A DNA stretch of 64,000 bases. Source: Escherichia coli (GTDB taxonomy: Bacteria > Pseudomonadota > Gammaproteobacteria > Enterobacterales > Enterobacteriaceae). Position numbers and translations under genes: made by a program. The notes below the pieces were generated by a model. That model ran no database searches, was not told the origin of the DNA, and was given only the letters and a program-made list of their open reading frames with translations. Shown here in pieces: positions 44,629 through 52,226 of this stretch; within the stretch, counting starts at the first letter, position 1; every line of letters begins with the position of its first letter. The stretch lies in assembly GCF_003018235.1 (NCBI RefSeq), contig NZ_CP027437.1; one strand, given 5' to 3'.

Positions 44629-47220
44629 ATGCATCAATCTGGTTCTGTTTCTCTTTGTCGTTCCGCAATATCTGTTCTGGTGGCTACAGCGTTATATTCA
44701 CCCATAGCATTGGCATCAACAGTTGAGTATGGTGAGACAGTTGATGGTGTTGTCCTGGAAAAAGATATCCAGCTGGTTTATGGGACCGCCAATAATACGA
44801 AAATCAATCCTGGCGGAGAACAGCATATTAAAGAATTTGGTATAAGTAGTAATACTGAAATTAACGGCGGGTATCAGTACATTGAAATGAATGGCACCGC
44901 AGAATACTCAGTATTAAATGATGGTTATCAAATTGTTCAAATGGGTGGTGCGGCAAACCAGACTACCCTCAATAATGGTGTGCTACAGGTTTATGGCGCA
45001 GCGAATGATACTACCATTAAAGGCGGGCGCTTAATTATTGAAAAAGATGGGATTACCGTCTTTGCCGCTATCGAAAAGGGAGGATTACTGGAGGTTAAAG
45101 AGGGGGGGTTAGCATTTGCGGTAGATCAGAAAGCCGGCGGTGCTATTAAAACAACCACGCGGGCCATGGAGGTATTCGGAACAAACCGTCTCGGTCAGTT
45201 CGATATCAAGGATGGTATTGCTAATAATATGTTGTTGGAAAACGGCGGAAGTTTGCGAGTTGAAGAAAATGACTTCGCTTATAATACCACTGTGGATAAT
45301 GGCGGCTTACTGGAGGTTATGGATGGCGGGACTGCAACTGGCGTTGATAAAAAAGCAGGCGGAAAATTAATTGTCTCAACGAATGCGCTGGAAGTGAGTG
45401 GTACAAACAGTAAAGGCCAATTTAGTATAAAAGATGGTGTGTCCAAAAATTATGAACTGGATGATGGTTCCGGGCTCATTGTTATGGAGGACACGCAGGC
45501 CATTGACACTATCCTTGATGAGCATGCCACTATGCAATCGCTGGGAAAGGATACTGGTACGAGAGTGCAGGCAAATGCGGTATATGATCTCGGTCGATCA
45601 GATCAGAATGGAAGTATCACGTATTCCTCTAAAGCCATCTCTGAAAATATGGTTATCAACAATGGCCGCGCTAATGTCTGGGCTGGCACAATGGTTAACG
45701 TTTCAGTCAGAGGGAATGATGGCATTCTTGAGGTCATGAAGCCGCAAATAAATTATGCACCCGCTATGTTGGTGGGTAAGGTAGTGGTTTCTGAGGGCGC
45801 TTCTTTTAGAACGCATGGTGCCGTGGATACCAGCAAAGCGGATGTTTCGCTCGAAAATAGCGCATGGACCATCATTGCCGATATCACTACGACGAACCAA
45901 AACACTCGCCTCAACTTAGCCAACCTTGCGATGTCTGGCGCAAATGTGATTATGATGGCTGAGCCAGTGACTCGTTCATCTGTGACGGCAAGTGCGGAAA
46001 ATTTCACTACGTTGACCACCAATACCCTATCGGGAAACGGCAATTTTTATATGCGTACCGATATGGCTAATCATCAGAGCGATCAGCTCAACGTCACCGG
46101 TCAGGCAACAGGTGATTTCAAAATATTCGTTACGGACACCGGTGCCAGCCCGGCAGCAGGTGATAGCCTTACACTGGTAACAACGGGCGGCGGTGATGCT
46201 GCATTTACGTTGGGCAATGCCGGAGGCGTTGTTGATATCGGTACGTATGAATATACCTTGCTGGATAATGGCAACCATAGCTGGAGCCTCGCAGAGAATC
46301 GCGCGCAAATTACCCCTTCAACCACTGATGTGCTGAATATGGCGGCAGCACAACCGCTGGTATTTGATGCAGAACTGGACACCGTGCGTGAGCGTATTGG
46401 TAGCGTAAAAGGCGTTAATTACGATACGGCGATGTGGAGTTCGGCAATTAACACCCGCAACAACGTGACCACTGATGCGGGAGCTGGCTTTGAGCAAACA
46501 TTGACCGGGCTGACGCTCGGTATCGATAGCCGTTTCTCCCGTGAAGAAAGCAGCACAATTCGCGGCTTGTTCTTTGGTTACTCTCATTCTGATATTGGTT
46601 TTGATCGCGGCGGCAAAGGTAATATCGATAGCTATACCCTGGGGGCTTATGCTGGTTGGGAGCATCAGAACGGTGCCTATGTTGATGGGGTGGTGAAAGT
46701 TGACCGTTTTGCCAACACTATCCATGGCAAGATGAGTAATGGGGCAACAGCGTTTGGCGATTACAGTAGTAACGGCGCGGGTGCTCATGTCGAGAGCGGG
46801 TTCCGTTGGGTTGACGGATTGTGGAGTGTTAGACCCTATCTGGCCTTTACCGGCTTTACCACAGATGGTCAGGACTACACGTTATCAAACGGCATGCGCG
46901 CGGATGTGGGAAATACCCGCATATTACGCGCTGAAGCGGGAACAGCGGTAAGCTATCACATGGACCTGCAAAACGGTACGACGCTGGAACCCTGGCTGAA
47001 AGCCGCCGTACGTCAGGAATACGCCGATTCTAACCAGGTGAAAGTTAATGACGATGGCAAATTTAATAATGATGTGGCTGGAACCCGTGGCGTTTATCAG
47101 GCTGGGATAAGGTCATCGTTTACCCCGACGTTAAGCGGTCATTTGTCTGTCAGCTATGGCAATGGCGCAGGGGTAGAATCACCGTGGAATACTCAGGCGG
47201 GTGTGGTCTGGTCGTTCTGA
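44629..47220 (+). CDS. yejO: autotransporter adhesin-like protein YejO, apparently intact
   Basis: 863-aa ORF with signal peptide, repetitive passenger domain (G/N/T-rich repeats) and C-terminal beta-barrel ending in aromatic residue (VVWSF). Confidence 0.8.
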   Translation: MHQSGSVSLCRSAISVLVATALYSPIALASTVEYGETVDGVVLEKDIQLVYGTANNTKINPGGEQHIKEFGISSNTEINGGYQYIEMNGTAEYSVLNDGYQIVQMGGAANQTTLNNGVLQVYGAANDTTIKGGRLIIEKDGITVFAAIEKGGLLEVKEGGLAFAVDQKAGGAIKTTTRAMEVFGTNRLGQFDIKDGIANNMLLENGGSLRVEENDFAYNTTVDNGGLLEVMDGGTATGVDKKAGGKLIVSTNALEVSGTNSKGQFSIKDGVSKNYELDDGSGLIVMEDTQAIDTILDEHATMQSLGKDTGTRVQANAVYDLGRSDQNGSITYSSKAISENMVINNGRANVWAGTMVNVSVRGNDGILEVMKPQINYAPAMLVGKVVVSEGASFRTHGAVDTSKADVSLENSAWTIIADITTTNQNTRLNLANLAMSGANVIMMAEPVTRSSVTASAENFTTLTTNTLSGNGNFYMRTDMANHQSDQLNVTGQATGDFKIFVTDTGASPAAGDSLTLVTTGGGDAAFTLGNAGGVVDIGTYEYTLLDNGNHSWSLAENRAQITPSTTDVLNMAAAQPLVFDAELDTVRERIGSVKGVNYDTAMWSSAINTRNNVTTDAGAGFEQTLTGLTLGIDSRFSREESSTIRGLFFGYSHSDIGFDRGGKGNIDSYTLGAYAGWEHQNGAYVDGVVKVDRFANTIHGKMSNGATAFGDYSSNGAGAHVESGFRWVDGLWSVRPYLAFTGFTTDGQDYTLSNGMRADVGNTRILRAEAGTAVSYHMDLQNGTTLEPWLKAAVRQEYADSNQVKVNDDGKFNNDVAGTRGVYQAGIRSSFTPTLSGHLSVSYGNGAGVESPWNTQAGVVWSF

Positions 47221-47281: not shown

Positions 47282-47313
47282 AAAAAAACCAACCGCAAAG
47301 GTTGGTTTTTTTT
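47282..47313. terminator. rho-independent terminator after yejO
   Basis: A-run, hairpin CCAACC-gcaaa-GGTTGG, then T8, directly after the yejO stop. Confidence 0.75.
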
Positions 47314-47392
47314 GGGATTTTTGCACGAGAGTAGTTTAATTGAGTATGTAACTACATGATTTAAAATAATTTGTCTAATTCAACTTTTAAAC

Positions 47393-47417
47393 CGTATAAC
47401 CAAACGTATAACTAAAA
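47393..47417. repeat. CGTATAAC(TAAA) repeat pair at the yejO-proximal end of the island
   Basis: cCGTATAACcaaaCGTATAACTAAAA; the same motif recurs four times at 57463-57519 near the integrase. Confidence 0.6.
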
Positions 47418-47620
47418 TGATTTGCTGAAAAAGTGTACAATTTAAAGACAGATTTTCCCGGGGGTTATAAAACTGCGAAAATTTCGTAGTTATCCCGATA
47501 CGGGGATCACCATATCGGGATTGGATACCTGGCTTTTTTTCCGGTTAACTCTTAATCATCTGCGTGATCATAATGATGATTCAGCCAGCGCAATTTTGCG
47601 TTATCGGGAATATCAGCAAG

Positions 47621-47902
47621 TTACCGCCGTAACCGCTCCGGCTTCTTCCAGTGGTAGGTAATTTTTTCTTTCTCCCGATACATCTCCACGCGGCGCTTGT
47701 AGGCCAGCATTTCAAGAACGCGGATCCGTATGTCGCGCATATCCACATCATTAAGCTGGATACCATCACGGCGCATCACCTCAGCAACCACACACGCATA
47801 ATTTTCGGCGGTCACGCAGTCCGGCTGCGTAGCCTGTTCGTCAGCCTGCTGGCTGATTCCGGCAACTCGGCGGATTAATCGCAGTAGTTCGGCTTCTGTC
47901 AT
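47621..47902 (-). CDS. hypothetical protein, 93 aa, island-borne
   Basis: ORF from the supplied track, downstream (minus sense) of conserved repeat copy 1; no family recognised. Confidence 0.4.
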   Translation of the reverse strand: MTEAELLRLIRRVAGISQQADEQATQPDCVTAENYACVVAEVMRRDGIQLNDVDMRDIRIRVLEMLAYKRRVEMYREKEKITYHWKKPERLRR

Positions 47903-48063
47903 TGTGCCCCCTCGCGCTGGTTAAGAAAACAAGCTCAGATTTTTTGTAAAGAATCTGTCACGCTAAAAGATGTCGAACAAAAAACAATCACCTTCATCAT
48001 CTTTTTTACATAAAAACAATTAAAAACAATAATTTACATACATGATGATGATGGCGATAAAAT

Positions 48064-48140
48064 CATAAAAATGCGCTTTTTTCCGCGCCGACCCGCCCCG
48101 TGGACAGGCCCACCCCACCAGGAGGACCCGCAAAAAAGGC
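48064..48140. repeat. conserved GC-rich element of about 65 bp, copy 1 (abuts the capsid-gene terminator)
   Basis: TGCGCTTTTTTCCGCGCCGACCCGCCCCGTGGAcaggCCCACCccACCAGGAGGACCCgCAAAAAAG, about 85% identical to 50604-50690 by eye. Confidence 0.6.
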
Positions 48141-48169
48141 GGCATATTTGCCGCCCTGTAAACTGTGTA

Positions 48170-50065
48170 TCAGCCGGAAGCCGTACCGCTCGATTTGACC
48201 ATGCCGCGATAGTCCAGCGCGGCCACACCGGCATCAATACGAACCTTCCAGGCGACACCGTCAACGATGAAGCCTTCCTGCTGTTCAAGGTAAGGCTCGT
48301 CATTACCATCAAGATAAGCCACCTCGATTGTGTCCGTTCCCTGTGCTGAAAGCATGTACCATTGATTCACACTAACATCATCCAGACGAGGATCGACAAT
48401 AATATCCAGTAGCTTGTGATACGGGTTAAATATGCCGCTGTTTTTATCGGCCCCGAAAGGTGCGGTTGAATTAATCATTTGCAACGCGCGATCTTCCAGT
48501 GCTGCCGGAACTAACAGGAATTTAGGTGCAATGTTCAGCACCTCGCCGTTTTTATCTTTCTGTATGCGCATAGCGTGACGTGCTGCACTAAGCCCCGGCG
48601 TCGTCATGCCAAGATCGATAAGGTTGTTGTGTTTTTTATCAAACAAGGCCACACCATCAGACAGCTTGCCGTTTCCTGTAAGTACCAGATTAACCAGATT
48701 GCCAACCGTTCTGGCTGCTGCACGCCCCATAGCCATTGGCACGGTAGACAACTGATCAAGGTCATCATTGATTATCGCCTGGCGGGTAATACTGAAAATA
48801 TTCCCGTATGTAGCCAGCGCGATTGGCTCACCGCGATCGCTGGTGGTGATGTATTTATATTCTGCCCCTTCCGGCACTTTGTTTAATGTTGAAAAACCAT
48901 TCAGGCCAACGCGGCGGGCTTCACGGAAGTTTGACAGAGAACCTTTTTTAGTCCACTGGCGGAATGTTTCGCCGCTGTGCTCCCAGCCTGCCAGCACTGA
49001 TTTTTCAGCGCCACCAGCCAGGATGTAAGTAAAATCGCTGCTGCTGTGAGTGAATGCCGCATTAACAATCTGCGAACGCGTGCTGTAGCTGCCTGTGCTT
49101 ATGCCACGATGGGTTAATGATGCCTGTGCCATATCGAAAAGGCTCATCATGGCGTAAGGATTGCCGCGTTCGGCCTGTTCGTGACCAAGACGTGCGTTAA
49201 GCCCCTGACGCATGGCATCGCCGGTTATGTTGCCGTTATCCGTATACGCGTAGTAAAGATTTGCGGGGGTGTTTTTGTTGGTGGGTGTCGATTCCTTGCC
49301 CATAGCCAATAAAAGGCGTTCGCGCGCATCCTCAACGCTACAACCTGCGTCTGCCAGGCAGTTAATAGCCAGGTCGTTATATTTCCCGTTGAACGTGCCA
49401 AACAATTCGCGAATGCCGTTTAGTCGTTCCTGTTCGCCGCTGGCTTTGTTCTGGTTGATCATGTTTTTGATACTTTCCGGCATATTTGAAAAATCTCCGA
49501 TTCGTTTTGATTCAATTCTGGCCATTGCTGTAATCGCGGGTATAACCTCATCTGCGAAGCCGTTAGCCTTACACTCATTGCCATCCATCCAGGTTTCCGC
49601 CTCCATCATGGCGGTGATTTCCTGTTTGCTTTTTCCCGTTCTTCCGGCGTAGGTTTCCGCCATCGTGTCGCCCAGCTTGTCCATCAGGTCAGCAAAGCGG
49701 CGAACGTCGCCCGACACGCCAGAAGTAACACCACGGGGGGCATGTATCATCATCATTGCGTTAGCGGGCATCACGATGTGATCGCCACACATGGCAATAA
49801 ACGAGGCCATAGAAGCCGCTATGCCTTCAATGTGTACGATTTTTTTCGCCGGATGATTTTTCAGGGCGTTATAGATAGCCAGCCCCTGAAAGATGTCGCC
49901 GCCTGGTGAATGGATACGCAAATGGATTTCAGACACGTCACCACACGCGCTTATCTGGTCGGTTAATGTTGACGCCTGTACACCGTAACCGCCTATTTCG
50001 TCATAAATGCGAACGTGAAGGGCGTCGGCTTTTGCCTGTATGCTGTACCAGGATTTCATAGCCAT
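48170..50065 (-). CDS. phage prohead protease (ClpP/S49-like) fused to HK97-fold major capsid protein, 631 aa
   Basis: N-terminal part resembles ClpP-type head maturation proteases (HSPGGDIFQGLAIYNAL ... ASMASFIAMCGD); C-terminal part resembles HK97-family major capsid proteins. Assignment by sequence resemblance from memory. Confidence 0.65.
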   Translation of the reverse strand: MAMKSWYSIQAKADALHVRIYDEIGGYGVQASTLTDQISACGDVSEIHLRIHSPGGDIFQGLAIYNALKNHPAKKIVHIEGIAASMASFIAMCGDHIVMPANAMMMIHAPRGVTSGVSGDVRRFADLMDKLGDTMAETYAGRTGKSKQEITAMMEAETWMDGNECKANGFADEVIPAITAMARIESKRIGDFSNMPESIKNMINQNKASGEQERLNGIRELFGTFNGKYNDLAINCLADAGCSVEDARERLLLAMGKESTPTNKNTPANLYYAYTDNGNITGDAMRQGLNARLGHEQAERGNPYAMMSLFDMAQASLTHRGISTGSYSTRSQIVNAAFTHSSSDFTYILAGGAEKSVLAGWEHSGETFRQWTKKGSLSNFREARRVGLNGFSTLNKVPEGAEYKYITTSDRGEPIALATYGNIFSITRQAIINDDLDQLSTVPMAMGRAAARTVGNLVNLVLTGNGKLSDGVALFDKKHNNLIDLGMTTPGLSAARHAMRIQKDKNGEVLNIAPKFLLVPAALEDRALQMINSTAPFGADKNSGIFNPYHKLLDIIVDPRLDDVSVNQWYMLSAQGTDTIEVAYLDGNDEPYLEQQEGFIVDGVAWKVRIDAGVAALDYRGMVKSSGTASG

Positions 50066-50250
50066 GCCCCTAACGTGTGCCCATACCAGTACTCTACCGC
50101 GCTGCGTGCAATTTGCCCTTTGGTCGGTACTGGCATTCCTGGGTGATTTTCCCTTATGAACTGCTGATAGCGTTCAATCTTCTCCATCGTTCCGGCGTCT
50201 ATGTGCACTGTTGCGCTTTTATCCGGTTTTCTGGTGTTGTTCTCTGGCAT
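50056..50250 (-). CDS. hypothetical small protein (64 aa from the internal ATG with GGAGG RBS), upstream of and overlapping the capsid gene
   Basis: ORF 50056..50283; ACGGAGG sits 8 nt upstream of the ATG at 50250. Confidence 0.4.
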   Translation of the reverse strand: MPENNTRKPDKSATVHIDAGTMEKIERYQQFIRENHPGMPVPTKGQIARSAVEYWYGHTLGAWL

Positions 50251-50444
50251 AAATCCGCCTCCGTTTTGATTAACGGGCATCATTATTGATCGATAAAAGT
50301 AATAGATAAATCATTTTCTACCTAAAAATCAGATTATGATTTTTCTGATTATTTCGAGAAAAGCAAATCATTTGACGCATTATTGCTATTTTGGCAATAT
50401 TAAGTCTCATTCATTCCGGTAGTAGAAGTTCGTTTGTCGTACTA

Positions 50445-50481
50445 AAGCGCCTCCGGTAGCACCATCGGGGGCGCTTTTTTT
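50445..50481 (+). terminator. orphan plus-strand rho-independent terminator inside the island
   Basis: GCGCCTCCGG-tagcaccat-CGGGGGCGC followed by T7; there is no plus-strand ORF upstream of it. Confidence 0.45.
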
Positions 50482-50603
50482 GTGCCTGTTTTTTTTGTAA
50501 ATATTTTCGGGAATGTTCCAGTGGTGAACAAAAAACAACCATAATCGACACTGAAATTTTTATCAGCCAAATATATCAATAAGTTATGTTAGTGGTGATG
50601 GTG

Positions 50604-50690
50604 CCATAAAAATCAAAAAATGCGCCTTTTTCCGCGCCGACCCGCCCCGTGGATGCCCCCACCAACCAGGAGGACCCACAAAAAAGCCGG
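50604..50690. repeat. conserved GC-rich element of about 65 bp, copy 2 (abuts the terminator of the int2/PerC-like unit)
   Basis: TGCGCCTTTTTCCGCGCCGACCCGCCCCGTGGAtgccCCCACCaaCCAGGAGGACCCaCAAAAAAG; the adjacent hairpin differs between the two copies but the block is conserved. Confidence 0.6.
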
Positions 50691-50708
50691 ATTGCTCCGG
50701 CTGTGTGC

Positions 50709-50984
50709 TCACTTCTGCGGGTAGTTGCGCCATACTGCTTTACCAATACCAGCTATCCCCATTTGTTTTTCAGTGCGATTAACTGACCTTTTCAGAGCGC
50801 CTAAATCATCCGGCGGCTCCGGTGGCCTCTGTGCCTTCCTGGAACATTCCTGCCGTCGCATTGCCACCTGTGCGCGTTCCTTGTCTGTCTCCACCAGCAT
50901 CATCACTTCACCCCATCGCGCCGCCGCCCTCCTGTAAAATCCTTTCGCCTCGAGTTCCTCCGCTATACGGTCATGTACCATCAT
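50709..50984 (-). CDS. small regulatory protein, possibly PerC family, 91 aa
   Basis: N-terminal IAEELEAKGFYRRAAARW resembles the PerC/Pch motif as I recall it; overlaps the int2 stop by 4 bp. Family call is tentative. Confidence 0.4.
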   Translation of the reverse strand: MMVHDRIAEELEAKGFYRRAAARWGEVMMLVETDKERAQVAMRRQECSRKAQRPPEPPDDLGALKRSVNRTEKQMGIAGIGKAVWRNYPQK

Positions 50985-51994
50985 TCACCACCTCCCGCAG
51001 ATGGCGATAAGCTGGCTTTGCCTCCAAGTGGATTAAACCTTATCGCCTCTGTCAGAAAATCCGGCGCAAAATGCGCGTAAACCATTGTCTGTTGTATGCT
51101 CGCGTGCCCCAGTATCCTTTGCAGTGTGATTATATTCCCCCCGTTCATCATGAAATGTGTCGCGAATGTGTGCCGTAATACGTGGGTGGCCTGGCCTTTT
51201 GGTAAGTCCGGTTTTACTGACTTGATGACCTCCCTGAACTCCAGATAATCCACATCAAACAACTGTCCCTTTTTACCTCTCGTTACAAGTTCCAGAACGT
51301 CATCAGACACCGGAACAGCTCGCGCCCGTCCGTTCTTCGTCTCCGTAAACATTACCTTGTTACTGACTATATTTTCCCGTCGTAGCGTCGATGACTCCCC
51401 ATAACGCGCCCCCGTCGAAAGACACAAAACAGCCAGCGCGAGACAGTCGCCTTTGGCAATATTCAGTAAATGATTAACCTCATCATCACCAAGAAAACTC
51501 ATAGCCTTGTTTGGTGCTTTCAGCTTGCGTAATCCACTCAAAGGGTTTTCACCGTGATACATACCGCATTCGATTAGCCCCCTGAACATTCCTGATATAA
51601 CCGACAAATCACGGTTAACAGTCAACGGACTAAGGCCGCATCCCAGCTTGTCGGCTCTGTATTCCATGAGCATTGCGCGGGTTATGTTGCAGATTCGTGG
51701 ATCCCCCATTTCACGGATAACCTTCATCATGCGCATAAACGATTGTTCGCCGTATTCCTCCGATCTTCCGATAAACTCCATCCATAAGTTAGCCAGATCA
51801 GATAACAGGCGAATATCTGCGGCGCGTGACTCCCAGGGCTTATTATGACAATGAAGCAGTATGTATTTTTCGTAATCACGGGCTTTTGTCTGCGAGGGAA
51901 AAATCTTTCTTATCCGTCGCCCGTAAGCGCCATTTGGCCTTACGTCAACCAGCCAGCGACCATCCTCACACTTCCTTATCGCCATGCTCCACAC
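50981..51994 (-). CDS. tyrosine site-specific integrase/recombinase, 337 aa (second integrase in the island)
   Basis: C-terminal catalytic region with HVLRHTFATHFMMNGGNIITLQRILGHASIQQTMVYAHF (R..HxxR..Y signature); size is typical of P2-type integrases. Confidence 0.8.
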   Translation of the reverse strand: MWSMAIRKCEDGRWLVDVRPNGAYGRRIRKIFPSQTKARDYEKYILLHCHNKPWESRAADIRLLSDLANLWMEFIGRSEEYGEQSFMRMMKVIREMGDPRICNITRAMLMEYRADKLGCGLSPLTVNRDLSVISGMFRGLIECGMYHGENPLSGLRKLKAPNKAMSFLGDDEVNHLLNIAKGDCLALAVLCLSTGARYGESSTLRRENIVSNKVMFTETKNGRARAVPVSDDVLELVTRGKKGQLFDVDYLEFREVIKSVKPDLPKGQATHVLRHTFATHFMMNGGNIITLQRILGHASIQQTMVYAHFAPDFLTEAIRFNPLGGKASLSPSAGGGE

Positions 51995-52226
51995 CCTTAA
52001 CGTTGATGGTTGTTACCTGTTCCGCTTCGGCTATCTCCCGTTCGGTCAGCGTGGCAAAGTTTGCCGCCGCTGTGGTCATGAATGCGCTTATCAGTTCGGG
52101 ATGTGCTTTCGCGTATCCTTCTCCCGTGTTGCGGTCTATCGTTCTGATTGCCACCTTTAAGGCGTGCTCTGTCATGTCTAATGCGCGATATTTTGGCGCT
52201 GCCTTATCTCTGGTTTTTCTGGTCAT
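51966..52226 (-). CDS. hypothetical small protein, 86 aa
   Basis: ORF between the replication ATPase and int2, overlapping the int2 start; no family recognised. Confidence 0.35.
   Translation of the reverse strand: MTRKTRDKAAPKYRALDMTEHALKVAIRTIDRNTGEGYAKAHPELISAFMTTAAANFATLTEREIAEAEQVTTINVKGVEHGDKEV

Follow-up and report, generated by a model that had tools for sequence, protein, structure and literature searches.

The fusion gene and its island

The 64,000-nucleotide stretch of Escherichia coli DNA analysed here (contig NZ_CP027437.1, assembly GCF_003018235.1; hereafter the window) carries, between yejO on one side and the tRNA-Pro gene proL with yejM on the other, an island of ~10.3 kb (~47324-57657) whose sole structural gene encodes a fusion of a ClpP-like prohead protease, a scaffold-like region and an HK97-fold major capsid protein (MCP). 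The island size follows from the two junctions placed by alignment with K-12, where the site is empty and proL and yejO lie ~100 bp apart. The open reading frame (ORF) of the fusion is on the minus strand, has an ATG start and encodes 631 amino acids (aa); RefSeq starts the identical gene two codons later (window position 50059; 629 aa).

The N-terminal half of the fusion is a Pfam CLP_protease domain (residues 43-175, E=1.8e-32) and the C-terminal half a Phage_capsid_4 domain (residues 333-625, E=3e-54), with a weaker additional match to Mu-like gpT. The full-length protein passes the NCBIfam model NF045540, named 'ClpP-like prohead protease/major capsid protein fusion protein', with 881.4 bits against a curated cut-off of 475, and it matches PHROG 133 (E=5.5e-279). 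The two features that mark NF045540 members are present: Ser/His catalytic motifs in a domain of ClpP fold, and a C-terminal domain with the HK97 fold. The AlphaFold model has a mean predicted local distance difference test (pLDDT) score of 91.3 when built on an alignment of 121 sequences from a representative search, while with 11 close sequences the capsid half reaches a pLDDT of 52. The confidently predicted structure matches ClpP and HK97-fold shells, encapsulins being matched by the capsid fold as well as phage capsids are; a PDB search by sequence alone retrieved ClpP only. Between the two halves the model shows a helical, scaffold-like region (residues ~180-330), in line with the NCBIfam model name scaf_prot_MCP1. 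A first, sequence-only reading of this DNA had described the gene as a ClpP-like maturation protease joined to an HK97-fold capsid protein. Pfam, NF045540, PHROG 133 and the AlphaFold model agree with this, and structure prediction recovered both halves, as ClpP and as an HK97-fold shell. The same reading saw no other structural genes, which holds for portal, terminase and tail genes in the island and has to be amended in that the fusion contains a scaffold-like region of its own. The fusion looks like a single gene with an apparently full set of procapsid parts, i.e. shell, scaffold-like region and protease.

The family is large: taken at the 50% identity level it has 5,737 representatives with E<=1e-30, and among the 150 best of these almost every one is a fusion of 617-795 aa. 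The codon usage, first taken as normal, is only roughly so: the relative synonymous codon usage (RSCU) of the fusion correlates with that of the window core genes at 0.72, close to the island repA (0.73) and below the core genes (0.85-0.95).

The identity of the island as a phage-inducible chromosomal island (PICI), of the Gram-negative class typified by EcCICFT073, is secure; the 3' end of proL is its integration site. It is ~10.3 kb long, has its own integrase at a specific site that is empty in K-12, carries int and an alpA-type regulator at one end with the genes running in one direction, encodes its own RepA initiator with a probable iteron origin directly downstream, lacks portal, terminase large subunit, tail and lysis genes, and possesses helper-type cos sites. 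The gene order is integrase, a 77-aa ORF, an AlpA-like helix-turn-helix (HTH) gene, Icd-like and other small genes, DUF4222, RepA helicase, iterons, an 86-aa ORF, a second tyrosine recombinase, a PerC-family activator and the late zone, which consists of cos, orf75, the protease-scaffold-capsid fusion, a second cos and orf93. All backbone genes are on the minus strand; a YlcI/YnfO gene is on the opposite strand. No portal, terminase, tail or lysis gene was found in the island or next to it with the ORF list, PHROG and NCBIfam scans and tblastn. Nor did tblastn reveal an Rpp, TerS or DUF1441 gene in the island when RppA, DUF1441 proteins of PICIs and the TerS of phages served as queries. Packaging redirection mediated by Rpp or TerS was rejected on this ground.

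Three other identities were considered. The sequence-only reading had allowed for a full prophage with portal and terminase genes just outside; both ends of the island, however, lie inside the window and abut the core genes yejO and proL/yejM, and the part of the SCU-111 genome that is syntenic to the remainder of the window consists of core genes (yfa, ato, rcs, ompC, nap, ccm). A full prophage or a decayed prophage remnant is rejected, as both ends are mapped against the empty K-12 site, the neighbours are core genes and there are no phage gene fragments. A P4-like satellite is rejected as well, since the PHROG and NCBIfam scans gave no match to Sid, Psu, Delta or the alpha primase-helicase and the cos is lambda-like, not P2-type. 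Finally, the capsid-forming PICIs (cf-PICIs) are reported to encode all proteins for their own capsids and DNA packaging and to steal only tails (bioRxiv 10.1101/2022.09.08.507074). They have a full head set (e.g. EcCI2, PDB 9gyi), whereas the window island has only the fused shell gene and no portal, connectors or packaging proteins, and therefore does not belong to them.

Selection, cos sites and capsid modules

The fusion and the Stx2_95 phage head protein align colinearly from end to end (343 of 662 residues identical), the main difference being a 35-residue gap after the protease domain. Ten out of ten sampled satellite-borne copies are full-length ORFs without an internal stop, the exception being a split gene in strain TW10828 (see below), and none of the 14 aligned copies departs from the protease motifs AASMAS and MMIH. 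The satellite copies fall into clades A, to which the window gene belongs, and B, with 62-65% identity from one clade to the other. When the window gene is compared with five sampled, non-identical clade-A copies, the ratio of nonsynonymous to synonymous substitutions (dN/dS, Nei-Gojobori) is 0.081-0.092 at dS ~0.5; by region it is 0.14 for the protease, 0.11 for the scaffold-like part and 0.055 for the capsid. Inside clade B it is 0.05-0.24. All three regions of the fusion are under strong purifying selection. The earlier opinion that the frame is intact and maintained is thus upheld, orthologous islands do keep the gene whole, and decay, which had been entertained as one explanation, is contradicted by the length, the colinearity, the invariant motifs and the dN/dS values.

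Clade A is 53-55% identical to phage and prophage copies and clade B 56-61%. Among 1744 phage records with a match no phage copy was at least 60% identical, the best reaching 51.8%. A Pro/Ala/Thr-rich linker of 30-35 residues at the boundary of the protease and the scaffold-like region of the phage copies is missing in both satellite clades. These data suggest that the satellite copies form a separate, monophyletic lineage.

The closest relative of the island, in E. coli SCU-111, is 98.8% identical over 96% of the length with a 100% identical capsid gene, and mosaic relatives with the same integrase occupy the same proL site in other strains. Comparison of the related islands shows that the capsid slot holds interchangeable modules: (i) the clade-A fusion (629 aa) in the window, SCU-111, KY177, strain 4, O22:H8, 08-00022 and 12E115; (ii) the clade-B fusion (637-638 aa), after which comes a gene for a DUF1441 protein with 47-50% identity to helper phage TerS; and (iii) a lambda-type capsid with a decoration protein, together with an Rpp or terS-like gene (EcCICFT073, SCU-171). 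The lambda-type capsid protein has no similarity to the fusion that is detectable by tblastn. A protein identical to the fusion is encoded on 36 contigs; the cluster to which it belongs at 90% identity comprises 1,046 sequences, and every listed member comes from E. coli. At the DNA level the gene is matched in 3,186 places, which are spread over 2,145 genomes out of 5,426 complete ones of E. coli; the identity is 80-90% in 141 records, and in 336 genomes at least 80% of the gene is covered.

Two of the related loci have unusual configurations. In E. coli O145:H28 12E115 (L004, 9455-19341) the PICI sits in terL of a lambdoid prophage, and its capsid gene has 92% protein identity to that of the window; the prophage, too, has a fusion of this kind as its head gene. 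In E. coli TW10828 (L006, 6353-18584) a PICI is inserted in the ClpP-MCP fusion of another PICI located at a tRNA-Ile gene, by which the target fusion is split into a protease fragment and a capsid fragment; this locus matches the 'C:CLP_protease:110' composites of PMC10111431.

A repeat of ~90 nt flanks the capsid module on each side (D1/D5; 84-85% identical, and 80% over aligned 250-nt segments). Alignment with the joined ends of lambda reveals in both copies cosQ (GGGTCCT) and, at the same spacing, a cosN-like core (ACG, then GGGCGGGTCGGC), and each is preceded by a terminator-like hairpin and then a T-run. The 12-nt cosN core is identical in both island copies; the corresponding cores of the Stx phage, of the O157 prophage and of both cos copies in the 12E115 island deviate from it by 1-3 nt. 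The downstream cos is 92-94% identical to non-coding DNA of Shiga toxin (Stx)-converting phages. In Stx2_95 the matching DNA lies ~140 nt upstream of terS, which is followed by terL, a small gene, portal and the fusion head gene. The downstream cos aligns with the cos-to-terS interval of Stx2_95 and the O157 prophage through the cosB-like region up to the next start codon, which belongs to terS in the phage and to orf93 in the island. The upstream cos has only cosQ and cosN in common with the phage. The bracket of two cos sites is kept in eight other islands (L004, L005, L010, L011, L013-L016), EcCICFT073 (L010) included; the proL island of E. coli strain 4 (L012, ~2290-2376) has kept the capsid gene and the upstream cos and has lost the downstream cos, of which 21 nt are left. 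The arithmetic of packaged lengths was dropped because it does not discriminate between capsid sizes: a 10.3-kb unit whose cos sites lie 2.55 and 7.78 kb apart is as compatible with full-size heads as with T=4-like or T=3-like ones (T, triangulation number).

The two small genes of the late zone are peculiar to satellites in our samples. Terminal to the backbone and downstream of cos, at the place of terS in the phage, orf93 was found in 11 of 11 sampled PICIs, including EcCICFT073, and in none of the sampled prophages. The other, orf75, occurs only upstream of ClpP-MCP fusion genes in PICIs, being absent from the sampled prophages and from EcCICFT073, and is a satellite-specific, putative partner of the fusion module. 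Neither has a match in 50,697 GenBank phage records or in Pfam. Homology of orf75 to the gpW-like phage gene and of orf93 to the gene that follows the phage capsid gene was ruled out, as no similarity was found.

Comparison with characterised systems places the island close to EcCICFT073 of E. coli CFT073 (L010, 27931-38700). Both have int, an alpA-type gene, Icd-like, YlcI and DUF4222 genes, a replication gene, PerC, a small ORF, a capsid gene and a terminal 93-aa gene (87% identical to orf93); both bracket the capsid module with two cos sites, which are functional in EcCICFT073 (PMC6092414), and lack portal, terminase large subunit, tail and lysis genes. EcCICFT073 differs in having a lambda-E-type capsid (351 aa) with a decoration protein and without protease or scaffold region, RppA, for which the window island has no counterpart, a primase instead of the RepA helicase, and another integrase and attachment site; it also lacks a second recombinase. 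Rpp steers helper TerS to the island's own cosB (PMC6739421). According to PMC10111431, PICIs are laid out in four zones, of which the late zone captures helper late genes and occasionally contains an extra integrase; no late gene is more frequent in Gram-negative PICIs than the capsid gene (21 of 29 reference islands), and helper-embedded PICIs have invaded tRNA-Ile2 PICIs that carry a CLP_protease gene. The TW10828 and 12E115 loci reproduce these CLP_protease and helper-embedded configurations. The fusion protein, the selection on it and the cos bracket are not analysed in that work, and its main text, as distinct from the unsearched supplementary tables, does not mention tRNA-Pro or proL.

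The head gene of Stx-type lambdoid phages (NF045540; Stx2_95, LC567838, and O157:H7 prophages) shares the three-part architecture, the colinearity and the catalytic motifs with the fusion. The phage head protein is, however, only ~52-55% identical and has the linker and an N-terminal extension, both of which are missing in satellite copies; moreover, the phage order is terS-terL-portal-fusion-connectors-tail, whereas the satellite fusion stands alone with orf75. The Ccm protein of SaPIbov5 offers a second parallel: its satellite is packaged from cos, lacks other head genes and encodes in Ccm a homologue of the HK97-fold capsid protein of the helper (PMC6893505, PMC8569155), and the fusion is likewise a satellite-encoded homologue, ~52-55% identical to the head protein of its candidate helpers. 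Ccm differs in that it belongs to a Gram-positive system, is 23% identical to the helper protein and has neither protease nor scaffold region, and in that redirection of capsid size and shape has been demonstrated for it. PmCI172, which carries a capsid homologue, makes small capsids (PMC6893505, PMC6092414). The capsid-gene arrangement of the window island has already been described, and what is new is confined to details of the lineage; the island is an ordinary, well-preserved member of a described satellite class and by itself opens no new question.

Proposed role of the fusion and competing explanations

We propose that the fusion builds or co-builds shells on the helper portal, which the helper terminase fills from the island cos sites; this is the likeliest of the explanations considered, and we regard it as about evenly balanced between right and wrong. 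Helper induction or infection would lead to excision and replication of the island, after which orf75 and the fusion would be expressed, possibly via PerC. The fusion protein would assemble on the helper portal, alone or mixed with the helper capsid protein, and trim itself with its own protease domain; the helper terminase would then cut the island cos sites and fill the shells with island DNA. The helper would provide portal, terminase, connectors and tail; the downstream cos has a helper-like cosB, and an Rpp or TerS gene would not be required. A role in head morphogenesis with a fusion-type lambdoid helper is suggested by the fact that all three regions of the fusion are under selection, that the satellite copies have clearly diverged from all sampled phage copies, that capsid and cos type match the helper head type (in 12E115, and for the lambda-type equivalent in 11capE of PMC10111431), and that the island has a helper-like cosB and no Rpp or TerS gene. 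Ccm of SaPIbov5 and the small-capsid island PmCI172 serve as precedents. When the sequence-only reading listed a capsid-providing or capsid-remodelling satellite function among its options, it was right about the satellite context, an EcCICFT073-type PICI with cos sites; the capsid function itself is what we infer.

The role of capsid genes in Gram-negative PICIs has been addressed by a single published knockout, that of a lambda-type gene with lambda-type helpers, which had no phenotype (PMC6092414). What is added here is that the fusion-type capsid appears to be a separate satellite lineage with strong selection on all three regions, and that capsid type and cos type co-vary with helper head type. 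Taken together, lineage, selection and co-variation suggest that the gene does something for the satellite, and they point to a lambdoid phage whose head is of the fusion type as the fitting helper, in place of lambda or phi80. PICIs spread virulence and defence genes among enterobacteria, and because the candidate helpers include Shiga-toxin phages, the biology of the island bears on Stx phage yield and on gene transfer.

Several observations weigh against the proposal that the fusion builds shells. Deletion of c1499 (capsid) or c1500 (decoration) in EcCICFT073 left transfer and lambda interference unchanged, the authors seeing no phenotype for c1499 (PMC6092414), and EcCICFT073 is apparently packaged in full-size heads (PMC6893505); the c1499 knockout concerned, however, a lambda-E-type capsid without detectable similarity to the fusion. 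No helper phage is present in the 64-kb window, the syntenic SCU-111 region of which has only core genes. The phylogeny of the fusion copies rests on 14 sequences, a sample so small that monophyly is suggested and not proven. A scan for a promoter of the capsid module gave 6 sigma-70-like sites against 5.3 expected by shuffle and is uninformative, the site count not being above expectation. Expression of the fusion, its assembly and its entry into particles are steps that we infer from sequence.

The fusion of protease, scaffold and shell in one gene, coupled to the satellite-specific orf75, also allows a bolder version of the proposal, which we regard as doubtful: this one gene may suffice for the island to form a procapsid of its own on a portal stolen from the helper, and the T number of that procapsid may be smaller. 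If so, the island would be intermediate between the classical PICIs, which steal whole heads, and the cf-PICIs, which steal only tails; the loss of the linker in the satellite copies would be an adaptation to a smaller internal volume; and the cos-to-cos bracket would be an exchangeable capsid cassette matched to the helper type.

Of the rival explanations, interference survives best, though we consider it unlikely. The fusion protein would co-assemble with the capsid protein of the helper and, by poisoning the shell or by mistimed proteolysis, would only spoil helper heads and reduce helper yield, having no part in satellite particles. Co-assembly is conceivable at 53-55% identity to helper-type capsids, satellites often disturb helper morphogenesis (PMC6893505, PMC6739421), and since the island lacks Rpp, the interference factor of EcCICFT073, some other interference function would be expected. 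A pure poison, however, would need neither the catalytic motif nor the scaffold-like part, both of which belong to regions under selection; the satellite requires working heads for its own transfer; and the c1499 deletion left interference intact in EcCICFT073, albeit with a different capsid family (PMC6092414).

The next rival is that the satellite gene serves as a back-up copy that replaces or buffers interrupted or damaged helper head genes and is retained because relatives of the island integrate in late genes of helpers, the proL form being carried along by recombination among satellites. The 12E115 locus speaks both for and against it: the PICI embedded in the prophage carries a copy 92% identical at the protein level, but the gene interrupted there is terL, not the capsid gene. 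Such a role has been proposed, and late-gene capture documented, in PMC10111431, and E. coli prophages with damaged late genes are many (e.g. L008, L007). The fact that at 53-55% identity the satellite copy is no near-copy of any sampled helper gene, and that five sampled proL islands hold a 92%-identical clade-A copy at a site outside any prophage, makes this explanation quite improbable.

It is very unlikely that the fusion is a passenger, i.e. a captured helper late gene without a current role in the satellite that has not yet been lost. A dN/dS of 0.08-0.09 at dS ~0.5 (0.05-0.24 in clade B), full length in 10 of 10 sampled copies, a cluster of 1046 members and the lack of a phage copy at 60% identity are at odds with neutrality; in favour of a passenger are the dynamic late zone of PICIs with its capture of helper genes (PMC10111431) and the absence of a phenotype for the EcCICFT073 capsid gene (PMC6092414). 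The last alternative, a domesticated, encapsulin-like host compartment (also raised by the sequence-only reading) or a decayed prophage remnant, draws on the fold, which matches encapsulins as well as phage capsids, and on the gene being the sole structural one present, and is rejected, as the gene lies in a cos-flanked, integrative island missing from K-12, keeps the protease and the scaffold-like region, and is accompanied by no recognised encapsulin cargo gene among the ORFs of the island.

Other features of the island

Table 1 Coordinates of the island features in the window, with the evidence for each
Feature	Position	Strand	Evidence and remarks
Left island junction (attL)	47312..47331	.	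K-12 empty-site alignment; K-12 sequence stops here
26-nt direct repeat	47392..47417 and 57494-57519	.	Repeat search; 96% identical (one mismatch), just inside each end
orf93, terminal backbone gene	47621..47902	-	PHROG 1561 (function unknown)
Downstream cos	47950..48155	-	Hairpin 48138-48155; cosQ GGGTCCT 48123-48129; cosN GGGCGGGTCGGC 48087-48098; cosB-like stretch toward orf93
ClpP-like prohead protease/scaffold-like region/HK97-fold major capsid protein fusion	48170..50065	-	ORF list, Pfam, NCBIfam, PHROG, AlphaFold
orf75	50056..50283	-	Overlaps fusion start; PHROG 4934 (function unknown)
Upstream cos	50500..50702	-	Hairpin 50685-50702; cosQ 50671-50677; cosN 50636-50647; divergent cosB region
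PerC-family small transcriptional activator homologue	50709..50984	-	PHROG 994/10396; RefSeq annotation of SCU-111 gene (96.7% aa)
Second tyrosine recombinase, 337 aa, accessory cargo	50981..51994	-	PHROG 1; NCBIfam Xer-like matches below cut-off
Iteron array	52238..52429	.	Direct repeats D2, inverted repeats I1/I7
RepA-family helicase (replication initiator)	52428..53828	-	PHROG 2850/906; RefSeq annotation
DUF4222 protein	53825..54121	-	Backbone gene upstream of rep in all related PICIs
AlpA-like HTH regulator/excisionase	55478..55684	-	PHROG 66/2790; identical protein annotated AlpA family in L015
Island integrase, PRK09692-type tyrosine recombinase	56190..57449	-	NCBIfam NF007246, 554 bits vs cut-off 434
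tRNA-Pro(GGG) proL	57650..57726	-	ARAGORN, Rfam; 3' end = right junction (attR ~57646-57664)

The left junction carries a degenerate copy of the tRNA-Pro 3' end (CACGAGAG, 47324-47331). The 26-nt repeats near both ends are distinct from this short tRNA 3'-end core and are possibly arm-type sites of the integrase. The iteron array consists of three 24-nt direct repeats at a spacing of 83-85 nt and inverted copies, lies directly downstream of repA and is probably the replication origin of the island; its position agrees with that described for the PICI ori in PMC6092414. An Rfam scan of the island gave the tRNA and a sub-threshold match of 'mir-7578' to the iterons (30.4 bits against a gathering threshold of 60), which is probably due to chance, and no C4/isrK RNA at E<=0.1. 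PADLOC found no defence system among 10 island proteins.

The second recombinase, located between the PerC-like gene and orf86, is the least host-like gene of the island (RSCU correlation 0.21), and among 11 related islands compared only that of SCU-111 has one. Between the upstream cos and orf75 there is a hairpin with a 14-bp stem (50444-50477) that reads as a plus-strand, i.e. antisense, terminator. A 353-aa ORF on the minus strand (54412-55473) is probably spurious, the same region in homologous islands containing short Icd-like minus-strand genes and the plus-strand YlcI/YnfO gene (54776-55000 in the window). Next to the left junction, yejO (44629-47220, plus strand) is an intact 863-aa autotransporter ORF in the window, while it is interrupted or a pseudogene in K-12 (IS5), SCU-111, strain 4, O22:H8 and 08-00022.

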